A stretch of DNA of 3,227 bases from a virus (taxonomy: Duplodnaviria > Heunggongvirae > Uroviricota > Caudoviricetes): positions 1-3,227 of IMG/VR virus record IMGVR_UViG_2541047736_000005; one strand, written 5' to 3'. This document shows, in pieces, positions 1-3,227 of this stretch. Numbering within the stretch: position 1 is the first letter of the stretch; each line of letters starts with the position of its first letter. Below the pieces are notes generated by a model that worked only from the letters and a program-made list of their open reading frames with translations, was not told the DNA's origin and did not search any database. The position numbers and the translations under genes were made by a program.

Positions 1-19
1 TTTTACTTCTTCATGCCAA

Positions 20-37
20 AAGGGAGCTATCTCCCTT
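20..37 (+). terminator. Candidate intrinsic terminator hairpin for a gene ending upstream of the window
   Basis: Perfect 7-bp inverted repeat AAGGGAG (20-26) / CTCCCTT (31-37) with 4-nt loop CTAT, followed by GTTTGAATTG. The U-tract is weak and the stem is only moderately GC-rich. Confidence 0.25.
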
Positions 38-148
38 GTTTGAATTGAAAAGTCCAGGCTGCAAAGTCTGGGCTTTTGTCGTATTAGGGCACGGTAAAGT
101 TTGGCTGTGCCCGTAAAAAATGGCTGGCTATACACAAGGAATGTGGCA

Positions 149-706
149 ATGAGTGGTGAAAAAAAGGCGAAAGGCTGGCGGTTCTATGGTCTTGTAGGTT
201 TTGGCGCAATAGCACTGCTTTCCGCTGGCGTCTGGGCGTTGCAATATGCTGGCAGTGGGCCAGAAAAAACGTTGTCGCCGCTGGTGGTGCACAACAATCT
301 GCAAATCGATCTCAATGAGCCGGACCTCTTTCTCGACAGCGACTCTCTGAGCCAGCTTCCCAAAGATCTCCTCACCATTCCGTTTCTCCACGATGTTCTG
401 AGCGAAGATTTCGTTTTCTATTATCAGAATCATGCCGATCGTCTGGGCATTGAAGGCAGCATTCGTCGTATTGTCTATGAACACGATCTCACGCTGAAAG
501 ATAAGCTCTTTTCGTCACTCTTAGATCAGCCCGCGCAGGCAGCGCTGTGGCACGATAAACAAGGCCATCTTTCACATTATATGGTGCTGATCCAGCGCAG
601 TGGTTTAAGCAAACTGCTGGAGCCATTGTTGTTTGCCGCTACCAGCGACAGCCAGTTAAGCAAAACGGAAATCAGTAGCATCAAGATAAATAGTGAAACT
701 ATTTGA
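149..706 (+). CDS. Hypothetical protein with N-terminal signal-anchor/TM helix, function unknown (185 aa)
   Basis: Six-frame ORF 101..706. I place the start at ATG 149 because AAGGA at 136-140 gives an 8-nt spacer, whereas the TTG at 101 has no RBS. Stop is TGA 704-706. After a basic KKAK stretch comes a hydrophobic segment WRFYGLVGFGAIALLSAGVWALQYAG, then a hydrophilic domain rich in D/E/L/S. No catalytic motif recognised by eye. Confidence 0.6.
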   Translation: MSGEKKAKGWRFYGLVGFGAIALLSAGVWALQYAGSGPEKTLSPLVVHNNLQIDLNEPDLFLDSDSLSQLPKDLLTIPFLHDVLSEDFVFYYQNHADRLGIEGSIRRIVYEHDLTLKDKLFSSLLDQPAQAALWHDKQGHLSHYMVLIQRSGLSKLLEPLLFAATSDSQLSKTEISSIKINSETI

Positions 707-781
707 TGCGCCGCGCGATAAATGCACTCTATCTTGTGCGATAAATGGCATCCACGCGGCGTTTCATTATTTGAAAAAGAA

Positions 782-1354
782 TTACATTTCAGGTTGCGTT
801 ATGACAGTCCCAACAGGGTGGTAGCGGTAGATCGTTGACAGTCCAATATCATAGATAATTGCCAGCCGCTTTCTGTCATACCCTTTCTGGAGCAATCTTG
901 CGATCTGCTCATGCTGCTCCTTCGTCAGTTTCGGGCGACGTCCTCCAACTCTCCCTTGTGCTCGCGCAGCAGCCAGTCCTGCCAGCGTGCGCTCAACTAT
1001 CAGTTCACGCTCCATTTCTGCCAGTGCACCCATCATATGAAAAAAGAACCTTCCCATCGGAGTGCTGGTATCGATTGAATCCGTCAGACTGCGAAAATTG
1101 ACACCTTTTGCGCGTAGCTCTTCTGTGAGAGCAATGAGGTGTTTCATTCTTCTACCCAACCGATCCAGCTTCCAGACCACCAATGTATCCCCTCTTTTAA
1201 GGCACTTTAAAGCGCGTTTCAGGCCTGGTCGTTCCGACTTGGTTCCGCTCATTTTGTCCTCAAAAATCTGTTCACATCCTGCGCACATTAATGCATTGCG
1301 TTGCAAATCTGTGTTTTGGTCATTTGTTGACACACGTATGTAGCCAATCAGCAT
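782..1354 (-). CDS. pin: Small serine recombinase, DNA invertase of the Hin/Gin/Cin/Pin family (190 aa)
   Basis: N-terminus MLIGYIRVSTNDQNTDLQRNAL carries the catalytic Ser in the RVST motif. Central blocks GDTLVVWKLDRLGR and SLTDSIDTSTPMGRFFFHMMGALAEMERELIVERT and a C-terminal HTH-like IGLSTIYRY match the hallmark blocks of this family. ATG is the complement of 1352-1354, with a GGGAG RBS (complement of 1363-1367, 8-nt spacer). It lies directly beside tail-fibre cassettes, as in Mu G, P1 C and e14 P. The symbol is family-level only; I cannot say which pin allele. Confidence 0.95.
   Translation of the reverse strand: MLIGYIRVSTNDQNTDLQRNALMCAGCEQIFEDKMSGTKSERPGLKRALKCLKRGDTLVVWKLDRLGRRMKHLIALTEELRAKGVNFRSLTDSIDTSTPMGRFFFHMMGALAEMERELIVERTLAGLAAARAQGRVGGRRPKLTKEQHEQIARLLQKGYDRKRLAIIYDIGLSTIYRYHPVGTVITQPEM
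1201..1261. promoter_or_regulatory. Candidate Fis-dependent recombinational enhancer inside the 5' part of the invertase gene
   Basis: Two 15-bp elements with G at position 1, C at position 15 and an AT-rich centre: GGCACTTTAAAGCGC (1201-1215, nearly palindromic about TTTAAA) and GCTCATTTTGTCCTC (1247-1261). Their centres are about 46 bp apart. In Hin/Gin/Cin systems the enhancer lies within the first ~100-180 bp of the invertase gene with two Fis sites about 48 bp apart. Pattern match only. Confidence 0.25.
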
Positions 1355-1408
1355 TAAAAATACTCCCTTTTGAGTGGTTAAAGTACTGAGATAATGTGGG
1401 GAGGATTT

Positions 1409-1434
1409 GAGAGATAAACGTTGGTTTGGGCGAA
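1409..1434. promoter_or_regulatory. Candidate recombination crossover site (gix/hix/pix-like) at the invertase-proximal border of the invertible segment
   Basis: GAGAGATAAACG TT GGTTTGGGCGAA has the AAACx-NN-GGTTT core typical of Gin/Hin crossover sites. The right half-site GGTTTGGGCGAA matches the recalled consensus GGTTTTGGATAA at 9 of 12 positions; the left half matches only in the inner AAAC. The site sits between the invertase start and the fibre cassette, and the cassette reading frame opens exactly here (in-frame TGA at 1408-1410). Confidence 0.45.
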
Positions 1435-1890
1435 ACGATAAATAAAGCCTCCGGAGCTATGCAGAAATCGGCTAATGGAGCTGATATTTCTGATGTATCA
1501 GCCTTCCGAAATGCGCTCCAGTTAGGGGCCGCCGCAACACGAGATGTTGGAGCAGATAATGCCTCGAAGTTACTGGATTTAGACAGCTTCAGGTCAATGA
1601 TGTCAGGGAATGGCTACATCTACATTCCATGCATTGCGACGACAGGAAACCCGGTGAAACTTATGTTGCAGTGGGGAACGGTGGCAACACAAAAGGGAGC
1701 TGATGCTGGATATGCCTTACCATTTGCTTTTCCCTATGCAGGCTTGTTTGCGACCGGAAACCGTGGAACATCTGGCTACAATGCCGCGATGAATGTGCGT
1801 ATTGCCAGCAGAACGCATATCAGTATTCAGAACTGGTCGCCATCCGGAGAGGGCACCGAAGATTGTTGTTTTATCGCGCTGGGGTATTAA
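1411..1890 (+). CDS. Tail-fibre C-terminal (receptor-binding tip) cassette, apparently the silent alternate arm of the inversion switch; no own start or RBS
   Basis: Frame is open from 1411 to TAA 1888-1890. The first in-frame start candidates are TTG 1426 and ATG 1459, with no convincing RBS. The product shares the motif LQLGxAAxRDVG and a C-terminal ...A[IL]GY end (CCFIALGY versus HFEAIGY) with the minus-strand fibre. Its 159 codons are similar in size to the short fibre fragments I recall next to pin in e14. Confidence 0.8.
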   Translation, partial: EINVGLGETINKASGAMQKSANGADISDVSAFRNALQLGAAATRDVGADNASKLLDLDSFRSMMSGNGYIYIPCIATTGNPVKLMLQWGTVATQKGADAGYALPFAFPYAGLFATGNRGTSGYNAAMNVRIASRTHISIQNWSPSGEGTEDCCFIALGY

Positions 1891-1892
1891 GA

Positions 1893-2303
1893 ATGAATAA
1901 ATTTTATAAAGGCTCTTTCTATCCGGAAGCACTAAAAGATGTATATATCAGCGCCGGCTCATGGCCTGAAAACGGCGTTGATGTTGATGATGAAACAATG
2001 GCAATTTACACGGGTGTCGTACCACAGGGTAAAATGCTAGGTTCCGATAAAAATGGCAACCCTGCTTGGGTGGATATTCCGCCTCTTTCAACGGAGCAAT
2101 TAGTTGCCATTATGGAGCAGAAGAAAGGGAAACTTCGTTCGATAGCCGATGCTGAAATTAGCTGGCGACAGGATGCCGTTGATGCAGGGATAGCGACGAA
2201 AGAGGAAACCGCCGCGTTATCTGAATGGAAAAAATACCGGGTCCTGCTGATGCGCGTTGATACAGCAAAACCCGTATGGCCTGTCAATCCGCAGGATATT
2301 TAA
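1893..2303 (+). CDS. Tail fibre assembly protein (Tfa chaperone), 136 aa
   Basis: ATG 1893 lies 2 nt after the fibre stop, suggesting translational coupling. The C-terminal block [31 protein letters not shown] matches the conserved C-terminal chaperone motif of lambda-type Tfa proteins as I recall it (...[25 protein letters not shown]...). The track ORF starts at 1863, but that overlaps the fibre and I prefer 1893. Stop is TAA 2301-2303. Confidence 0.85.
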   Translation: [136 protein letters not shown]

Positions 2304-2517
2304 CGGGGGCGTTGTAGGTGGTGACATATTCAAGCAGTTCTGTTGGATATGTCACCGTTGCTGCATCTCGCTCTACGTTAAATGTATCCGCTCCCCAGAT
2401 AACACACTCCCTCAAAAATGCCTCCACCTCTGGCGAGACTTCAACCGCATCATCAGGTCGCTCTTGTTCAGAAACATAAAAACCAACGGTCGTTGGGCTG
2501 AAATAGATATTCTCCAT
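2284..2517 (-). CDS. Tfa-like N-terminal domain only (77 aa); probable truncated or decayed tail fibre assembly gene
   Basis: ATG (complement of 2515-2517) lies 2 nt after the minus-strand fibre stop, the same junction architecture as the plus arm. N-terminus MENIYFSPTTVGFY...PDDAVEVSPEVEAFL resembles Tfa N-termini of the IYFSA..FY type. The ORF stops at TGA (complement of 2284-2286) without the conserved C-terminal ATKEE..W.KYRVLL.RVD block, and the track shows no minus-strand ORF that could supply it by frameshift. It overlaps the 3' end of the plus-strand tfa by 20 bp. Confidence 0.55.
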   Translation of the reverse strand: MENIYFSPTTVGFYVSEQERPDDAVEVSPEVEAFLRECVIWGADTFNVERDAATVTYPTELLEYVTTYNAPVKYPAD

Positions 2518-2519
2518 AT

Positions 2520-3227
2520 TTAGTATCCTATTGCTTCAAAATGCAGTGTCGGTGTTTCGCCGAGATTGGGTGTCGTATACGCCACAGTGAATCGCGTTCT
2601 TGATACGTCAGTGCCAGAATCAGTATCGCGATGCGTTGCCAGTGATTTTCCGGCCATTGTTGACTGGGTCGGATAGCTGTAACTCGCTAGTGTTGCCAGC
2701 GTTGCTATTTGTGCATTTGGGAATTGTCTGGGGAAATTAACCCTGTAGTAATGGGTGTAGTACGTCACCCCACCAAGCACCTGCGAGTTGAAGTTACCAA
2801 CTGGTGTCAGTGTCACAGTGCCAGCCTGTCGAATCATACCATTTGGGAGAATATCCCAGGCAGTTTGTCCGTTTCGCGACATACCAAATGCGGACATGTC
2901 CGGGAGTTGATTATTACCGGTTCCGACATCCCGTTTTGCCGCTTCTCCCAATTGAAGGTAATTGAGGACTTCTTTTATACTGCCCATAGCGATAATAGCG
3001 CGACCAATAGCTGTAAGGGTTGTCAGCGCTGCGCGGTCTGCTCCGGTAAAATAAGGCAACCGATCTGCTGCAGTGGCAAGTCCTGCCAGAGCAGTGAGCG
3101 TGGCATCTGCCGGTTGTTTTCCGTTTGCCAGATCGTATGCAGCCTTGACCGCTTTCGGTGTGGCGGCCAGTATTTCAGACGTGCTGTTGATGTCACTGCT
3201 CAATTGTACGGTGCCTTTTGCCGTCAG
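2520..3227 (-). CDS. Tail fibre protein, C-terminal portion (partial; 5' end lies beyond the right edge of the window)
   Basis: The reading frame is open from the window edge (3227) down to TAA (complement of 2520-2522); the M in the track at 3203 is a TTG inside an open frame. SDINSTSEILAATPKAVK...NGKQPADATLTALAGL...LPYF resembles the conserved region of lambda-like side tail fibres (recalled, unverified). It is followed by a divergent tip ending HFEAIGY. Confidence 0.9.
   Translation of the reverse strand: MTAKGTVQLSSDINSTSEILAATPKAVKAAYDLANGKQPADATLTALAGLATAADRLPYFTGADRAALTTLTAIGRAIIAMGSIKEVLNYLQLGEAAKRDVGTGNNQLPDMSAFGMSRNGQTAWDILPNGMIRQAGTVTLTPVGNFNSQVLGGVTYYTHYYRVNFPRQFPNAQIATLATLASYSYPTQSTMAGKSLATHRDTDSGTDVSRTRFTVAYTTPNLGETPTLHFEAIGY

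Follow-up and report, generated by a model that had tools for sequence, protein, structure and literature searches.

The locus considered here raises the question of whether a short gene lying directly downstream of an expressed tail fibre gene is the remnant of a chaperone gene or a complete gene of unusual design. The window, by which is meant the whole stretch of 3,227 nt that was analysed, corresponds to positions 9853-13079 of scaffold KE699566.1 (L015). It carries two convergent cassettes, one on each strand, and in both of them an accessory gene starts 2 nt past the stop codon of its own fibre tip (Table 1). The accessory protein of the plus-strand cassette is a classical tail fibre assembly protein (Tfa) of the Caudo_TAP family, and that of the minus-strand cassette has 77 aa and lacks the C-terminal block of Tfa. 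A preliminary description of the window had reported this absence as well as the 20-bp overlap (2284-2303) between the two convergent genes, both of which agree with the ORF listing and the Pfam results. It took the 77-aa protein for a truncated chaperone and proposed as explanations that DNA had been lost between the tfa 3' ends, that the opposite-strand Tfa served in trans, that the chaperone was genuinely short, or that the locus was defective. The genuinely short chaperone is the best supported of these four alternatives; that the protein is a chaperone is probable, an assignment of function made from its position, its homology and its co-variation with the tip.

Table 1. Coordinates of the features of the window
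Feature	Position	Strand	Basis or detail
yfaA (host, DUF2138), 5' part	1..703	+	100% identity to E. coli yfaA up to 703
Prophage DNA end, from yfaA junction to invertase stop codon	704..781		78 bp
Serine DNA invertase, Pin/Gin/Cin-type, 190 aa	782..1354	-	Pfam Resolvase (E 8e-51) and HTH_7
Recombination site A, GAGAGATAAACG-TT-GGTTTGGGCGAA	1409..1434		Exchange at central TT, 1421-1422
Silent alternative fibre tip, Sv'-like	1411..1890	+	Pfam Gp53-like_C (E 1.4e-8)
Tfa, classical tail fibre assembly protein, 136 aa, cognate to silent tip	1893..2303	+	Caudo_TAP
Conserved short protein, 77 aa, related to Tfa N-terminus, without helical C-terminal block; partner of expressed tip	2284..2517	-	ATG start
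Expressed tail fibre, C-terminal 235 aa	2520..3227	-	Pfam Phage_fiber_2 (E 2e-17), Gp53-like_C (E 1.5e-6)
Recombination site B, TCCTCAATTACC-TT-CAATTGGGAGAA (minus strand)	2943..2968		Exchange at 2955-2956

The left part of the window is host DNA. The yfaA fragment covers positions 2-176 of the 560 positions of the DUF2138 profile (Pfam), and the gene is cut at 703/704 by phage DNA. Two phage records begin to match the window exactly at 704, with 99-100% identity, and in PV468777.1 (L019), an ST131 prophage record, the phage end lies at the identical nucleotide and adjoins aroA, not yfaA. The tail genes of L015 are arranged in the order tape measure-U-X-D-V-W-J-I-fibre-invertase, with the invertase at the end. 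This Mu-like gene order and the occurrence of one phage end beside different host genes suggest a transposable or multi-site phage. The same two features, along with the end repeats of Mu, raise the possibility that positions 704-781 are a Mu-type transposable-phage end. The copies of the invertase in related elements are annotated as pinE or as recombinase.

The interruption of yfaA only 78 bp beyond the invertase, and a fibre cut at the edge of the window and at a gap in the scaffold, might be taken to mean that the cassette belongs to a decaying prophage remnant in which the short gene has no functional meaning. The right edge of the window at 3227, however, is L015 position 13079, where a gap of 745 Ns interrupts the scaffold within the repetitive Phage_fiber_2 region of the shaft, and it is only because of this gap that the fibre ORF seems to start at the window edge. 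Past the gap come a normal fibre N-terminus and then P2-I-like, J, W, V, D, X, U and tape-measure genes, which make up a complete complement of tail and baseplate genes. The invertase is intact, and a second sample of this locus has the segment that it serves in exactly inverted form. Other records have the phage end of position 704 at the same nucleotide, and the short gene is 100% identical to its copy in intact prophages. A defective locus is accordingly very improbable. Since the minus-strand fibre continues past the gap to the fibre N-terminus and the baseplate genes, the minus-strand arm is the one joined to the shaft, which is what the preliminary description had supposed. Within the window this fibre consists of a variable tip (approximately 2520-2954) and a part of the shaft that contains the Phage_fiber_2 repeat (2969-3227).

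The two recombination sites both have a TT centre in their own coding direction, and one of them lies within the fibre reading frame. Site B encodes LNYLQLGE, and its inner half-site is atypical in having CAATT in place of GGTTT. A flipped allele from another sample (L017), which has the identical yfaA junction, consists of window 1-1422, the reverse complement of 1418-2956 and window 2940-3227, with 98.3-100% identity per segment, and these segment boundaries place the exchange exactly at the central TT. An unbroken match to a synthetic flipped junction was obtained in 16 complete E. coli records; in one of these (L014) the Tfa arm is on the shaft and the short arm is silent, and the short protein is WP_001340317.1, as in an intact P2-like prophage (L001). 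Counts for the E. coli relatives were 60 unflipped versus 16 flipped records, figures that are not strictly comparable since elements with other partner cassettes may be matched by the unflipped query too. The inversion switch is thus active at the window locus, with an invertible segment of approximately 1422-2955, and the phage alternates between one tip with a classical Tfa and another tip with the short protein. The inner half of site B reads ACC-TT-CAATTGGGAGAA (YLQLGE), compared with the usual ...GGTTTGGG... (LGLGE). This atypical half-site is kept in the window, in L001 and in a P1-like phage-plasmid (L002), and it still supports precise inversion (L017).

In the state represented by the window the plus-strand tip is silent. 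Its reading frame opens only past a TGA that lies within the recombination site (1408-1410), and it has neither a start nor a promoter of its own; in the flipped alleles L017 and L014 it is in frame with the shaft. Past the junction motif it is unrelated to the tip of the minus-strand arm. The silent tip has about 32 extra codons between site A and a second junction-like motif, 'LQLG..RDVG' (1505-1560 versus 2913-2968), which aligns with the flank of site B and may have been left by an earlier crossover site or by the shuffling of cassettes. The plus-strand Tfa, for which 1893 is the biological ATG, matches positions 5-131 of the 131 positions of Caudo_TAP (PF02413; E 4e-31, 108 bits; Pfam). 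Its C-terminal block, the retention of which had been pointed out before, shows homology to residues 107-175 of Mu protein U (5YVQ_B; E 1.6e-14). In an AF2 model of this Tfa (pLDDT 95.7), residues 1-61 form the elements beta-beta-(alpha)-beta-alpha-beta-beta and are followed by two long helices.

If the 77-aa ORF were a stump of a full-length tfa gene, made by a frameshift or by loss of 200-300 bp between the convergent 3' ends, one could account for the absent C-terminal block, for the overlap with the opposing gene and for the Tfa-like character of the first 33 or so residues. The lengths of its homologues argue against such a lesion. A search of 5.8 billion proteins yielded 34 homologues, nearly all of 77-80 aa, down to 59% identity, from Escherichia, Citrobacter, Enterobacter and Phytobacter; Klebsiella elements carry the gene as well. 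When 1.84 billion cluster representatives were searched exhaustively with an HMM, the family extended to about 45% identity, its members all being full-length at 75-96 aa, and neither a longer version nor a fusion to the Tfa C-terminal block was returned. Conservation continues through the C-terminal end of the alignment, in which W41-G42-A43, Y64-V65 and A70-P71 are invariant, and purifying selection likewise extends to the last residues. The ratio dN/dS is 0.083 relative to a Phytobacter-type copy (L005) and 0.14-0.25 relative to the copy of Klebsiella phage KP12, for which synonymous sites are saturated. Because the stop-to-stop frame is kept in more than 30 homologues and dN/dS lies at 0.08-0.25, the ORF is not a chance one. 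Of 5,426 complete E. coli genomes, 146 carry a member of the family. The family is named 'hypothetical protein' in every database examined, and no mention of its protein accessions was found in the literature.

The DNA around the gene likewise bears no trace of a lesion. The three minus-strand frames past the TGA are stop-rich and contain no Tfa-like sequence and no match to an HMM of the Tfa C-terminal block, which disposes of a frameshifted continuation. The identical 234-nt gene, together with the 20-bp overlap, occurs in the intact P2-like prophage L001, the P1-like phage-plasmid L002 and the lambdoid phage phi458 (L009), and nothing is missing from the window relative to these intact relatives, the window copy being 100% identical to that of L001 at the DNA level. 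The gene also ends at the same point where no tfa gene opposes it, as in the non-invertible P2-like prophages L003 and L005-L008. KP12 (L011, OM835952.1) represents an independent lineage with a short protein that is 51% identical, and in this phage the short gene (1118-1360) and a gene for a 200-aa Tfa (1332-1934) converge with an overlap of 29 bp, each being of normal length. A truncated chaperone or a deletion between the tfa 3' ends therefore finds no support at this locus, and a lesion of either kind is scarcely credible; a domain may have been lost long ago, at the origin of the family, which would be a new architecture and not a defect of the window locus. By all of these comparisons the 77-aa ORF is complete and belongs to a conserved, unnamed family of naturally short genes, and the 20 bp shared by the convergent genes reflect normal compaction of the segment and not a deletion scar.

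Some further features of this region deserve mention. The short gene is identical in the window (2284-2517) and in L001 (7362-7595), and the whole invertible region is only about 89.6% identical; the divergence between the two is concentrated elsewhere in the segment, which is therefore mosaic. A very stable stem-loop at 2301-2380 (core arms 2320-2333 and 2343-2356) begins at the stop codon of the plus-strand tfa and lies wholly within the 3' part of the short ORF; its folding energies on the plus and minus strands are -37.8 kcal/mol (z -5.8) and -23.2 kcal/mol (z -4.5), respectively. An intrinsic terminator was considered for this structure and rejected, as no U-tract follows it and a consensus scan did not call it. 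The core of the stem-loop, which corresponds to the codons VTY...YVT, is also found in L005 and KP12 and is absent from L003. It may be a bidirectional barrier, a stabiliser of mRNA 3' ends between convergent genes or a by-product of a palindrome in the peptide. In KP12 the short gene is unannotated and on the silent arm, and the product annotated as 'tail fiber protein', KP12_250, is in fact the 200-aa Tfa (C-block HMM E 4e-11).

A gene of normal length might still encode a protein that is insufficient by itself, in which case the tip would need a full-length Tfa in trans from the opposite strand or from another prophage. The C-terminal block that the short protein lacks has been described as a trimerisation module (PMC9608196), the invertible elements all have a full Tfa 20 bp away, and E. 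coli hosts often have other tfa genes, the relatives of the plus-strand Tfa numbering 968. In the non-invertible P2-like prophages, however, the arrangement is V-W-J-I-fibre-[77-80 aa]-sheath-tube with no invertase, so that the short gene takes the slot of P2 gene G, and a six-frame scan of these loci within +-6 kb found no Tfa sequence near the short gene, using a Caudo_TAP-type HMM that would miss an unrelated class of chaperone. The P1-like phage phi456 (L010/L012) has lost the other arm and the invertase by deletion. What is left of its Tfa (record positions 14464-14769) is without the first 40 or so codons, is fused to the first cin codons and contains an internal stop, and across the whole 89-kb genome no intact Tfa was found apart from this broken remnant. 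Even so phi456 is infective, having been propagated from plaques, although its plaques on MC1061 are tiny and blurry (PMC10967188). It is possible that the hosts of phi456 (DE456 and K-12 MC1061) supply a Tfa from cryptic prophages in trans. As for the opposite strand, in the window state the plus-strand tfa appears to lie antisense to the late operon, with no promoter evident, and relatives which lack any Tfa do not need one from that source. Dependence on a Tfa in trans is thus improbable. In phi458 (L009, 5822-6519) the other arm contains an IS1, and the invertase has been shortened to 279 nt. Both phi456 and phi458 are propagated phages that are locked with the short arm expressed.

What kind of protein the short gene encodes was approached through its similarity to Tfa. 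The 77-aa protein has no match in Pfam at E<=1 and none in NCBIfam, the divergent family members P0036, P0039 and P0040 do not match PF02413 at E<=0.01 (Pfam), and BLASTP gives no alignment between the accessory proteins of the two arms (77 aa and 136 aa). Residues 1-31 of the protein do match phrog_188, 'tail fiber assembly protein' (E 9e-5), as do 16 of 18 diverse members of the short family. Alignment of the short family with 135-160-aa Tfa proteins by hhalign gave a probability of 90% (E 1.7e-6) over residues 1-33; with a shallower alignment the match had a probability of 67% (E 5e-5), ran over the whole length and ended at the start of the Tfa helical block. Homology of the first 33 or so residues to the Tfa N-terminus is solid on these profile comparisons, and homology beyond that point is suggested by the 67% hhalign match and by the order of the predicted secondary structure elements. 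Modelled by AF2 (pLDDT 90.4), the short protein consists of beta-beta-beta-alpha-beta-beta and one short helix at residues 59-67. A sequence-profile search of the PDB with the 77-aa protein returned only a chance match of 24 residues (E=2), and fold searches of the PDB with the model found nothing significant and did not recover the Mu Tfa N-domain. Matches in BFVD, a library of viral models, were weak, two of them being to annotated Tfa proteins of which one has just 60 aa.

The helical block that characterises the C-terminus of Tfa ('...ATxEExxxLxxWKxYRVxLxRVD...') is absent from the ORF, from the frames downstream of it and from all family members. The protein thus carries the N-terminal Tfa motif but lies below the gathering threshold of Caudo_TAP and is without the C-terminal block, and its gene is co-oriented with and directly 3' of its cognate fibre gene in the P2-like, P1-like, lambdoid and KP12 contexts. 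It is a relative of Tfa with the N-terminal part only, and it stands outside Caudo_TAP as Pfam defines that family. The preliminary description supposed that the C-terminal block acts on the fibre tip, which is imprecise. A summary of the Mu Tfa structure (5YVQ) assigns binding of the distal fibre tip to the N-terminal domain of Tfa, which is variable, and trimerisation to its C-terminal helical domain, which is conserved (PMC9608196). It follows that what the short protein is without is the trimerisation module and not the part that binds the tip. Two longer proteins, P0044 and P0045, have a tandem duplicate of the N-terminal motif 'FSxxTLGFY...PxDAVEI(S/T)'. In P0045 the tandem motifs precede a Phage_tail_APC chaperone domain (PF16778), and the similarity of this protein to the short family is a weak, partial sequence match. 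The distribution of the motif suggests that it is a mobile module common to different families of fibre chaperones.

The short gene is also tied to one particular kind of fibre tip. All eight fibres examined upstream of a short gene (8/8) have one tip type, of the Gp53-like_C type with the pattern '...LGEAAKRDVGTGNNQLPDMSAF...YYTHYYRV...HRDTDSG...HFEAIGY'. Over the last 170 residues they are 47-98% identical, and divergence among these eight tips is roughly in step with divergence of the short proteins. Fibres that are followed by a full Tfa, namely those of the plus arm of the window, the plus arm of L001 and the expressed fibre of KP12, have unrelated tips past a short junction motif. The short gene and its tip move as a unit through P2-like, P1-like, lambdoid and Mu-order phages. 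On this pattern of co-occurrence, the short gene and one particular receptor-binding fibre tip appear to constitute a two-gene module.

The reading that is considered likely is that the short protein is a minimal, tip-specific fibre accessory, an N-domain-only relative of Tfa, within one of the two alternative tip and accessory cassettes of a Pin-type switch. The protein would be translated directly after the fibre, given the 2-nt spacer and an AGGA of its own 8 nt upstream of its ATG. Its position, homology and co-variation with the tip suggest that it binds the nascent tip in the manner of the Tfa N-domain. It would then aid the folding or solubility of the tip, and it may stay attached to the fibre. 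In place of the conserved helical hairpin, or trimerisation block, a single 9-residue helix is predicted to follow the core. A more specific proposal is that the short family is a minimal, self-sufficient chaperone which folds the Gp53-like trimeric tip without the conserved C-terminal trimerisation module, regarded in the current modular model as the engine that Tfa proteins have in common, and this proposal comes near to an even chance without reaching it. Were it so, the tip would trimerise alone once bound, or the short C-terminal helix would substitute for the module.

Alternatively, the short protein could be real and linked to the tip but not a chaperone, serving instead as a structural cap or adaptor that modulates receptor binding or as some other small accessory. 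Tfa proteins of Mu and Ur-lambda stay on the virion (PMC9608196), strict co-variation with the tip is just as consistent with any binding partner, and the protein lacks the trimerisation block and has no structural match. Against this are the location of the gene at the G/U position in three phage types, the N-terminal Tfa motif and a translational arrangement that the Tfa of the opposite arm has in identical form. These features favour a role in assembly, which would be compatible with retention on the virion, and a cap or adaptor is unlikely, though still to be reckoned with. With the assembly accessory preferred, what seemed to be a defect is a conserved design that belongs to an unannotated family of small proteins. 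If the short protein is the chaperone of its tip, then the C-terminal domain of Tfa is dispensable for some tips, and phage host-range engineers would have at their disposal a very compact module of tip and accessory. For annotation purposes, these 'hypothetical proteins' should be named and cassettes of this kind should not be flagged as degraded.

The Mu G segment with Gin, the P1 C segment with Cin and the e14 P segment with Pin are invertible host-range switches of tail fibres, and the classical systems of this kind have full-length accessory genes of the Tfa type (U and U') on both arms. The window resembles these systems in having a serine invertase beside a segment of about 1.5 kb that is bounded by inverted sites of 26 bp within the fibre gene, a pair of convergent cassettes of tip and accessory, and both orientations among the observed alleles. 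It differs from them in that its two arms use accessory proteins of 136 aa and 77 aa and in that one site has an atypical inner half-site. Compared with Tfa proteins of the Caudo_TAP family (lambda Tfa, Mu U/U', P2 G and e14/Rac Tfa; PF02413; 5YVQ), the short protein is likewise encoded directly downstream of a fibre, and it shares with them the N-terminal motif 'FSxxTxGFY...PxDAVEVS', the predicted order of N-domain elements and specificity for one tip. It is about half their size, lacks the C-terminal helical hairpin and fails the Pfam model, and its similarity to the structure of the Mu U N-domain is not detectable. In the modular model of Tfa (PMC9608196), the N-terminal tip-binding domain is small, variable and beta-rich, and the short protein resembles this domain. 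Whereas gp25 of cyanophage Pam3 and Mu Tfa need or have a C-terminal helical domain for trimerisation, the short family has the one helix of nine residues. A protein of 60 aa from Pantoea phage LIMEzero that is annotated as Tfa (F4N9V0) ranked third among the BFVD matches and was the first with a name (probability 0.93, 29% identity over 58 columns); this match is weak (E 0.05) and was not found by sequence searches, and the function of the LIMEzero protein is given by annotation only. The LIMEzero example indicates that other very short proteins are also annotated as Tfa.
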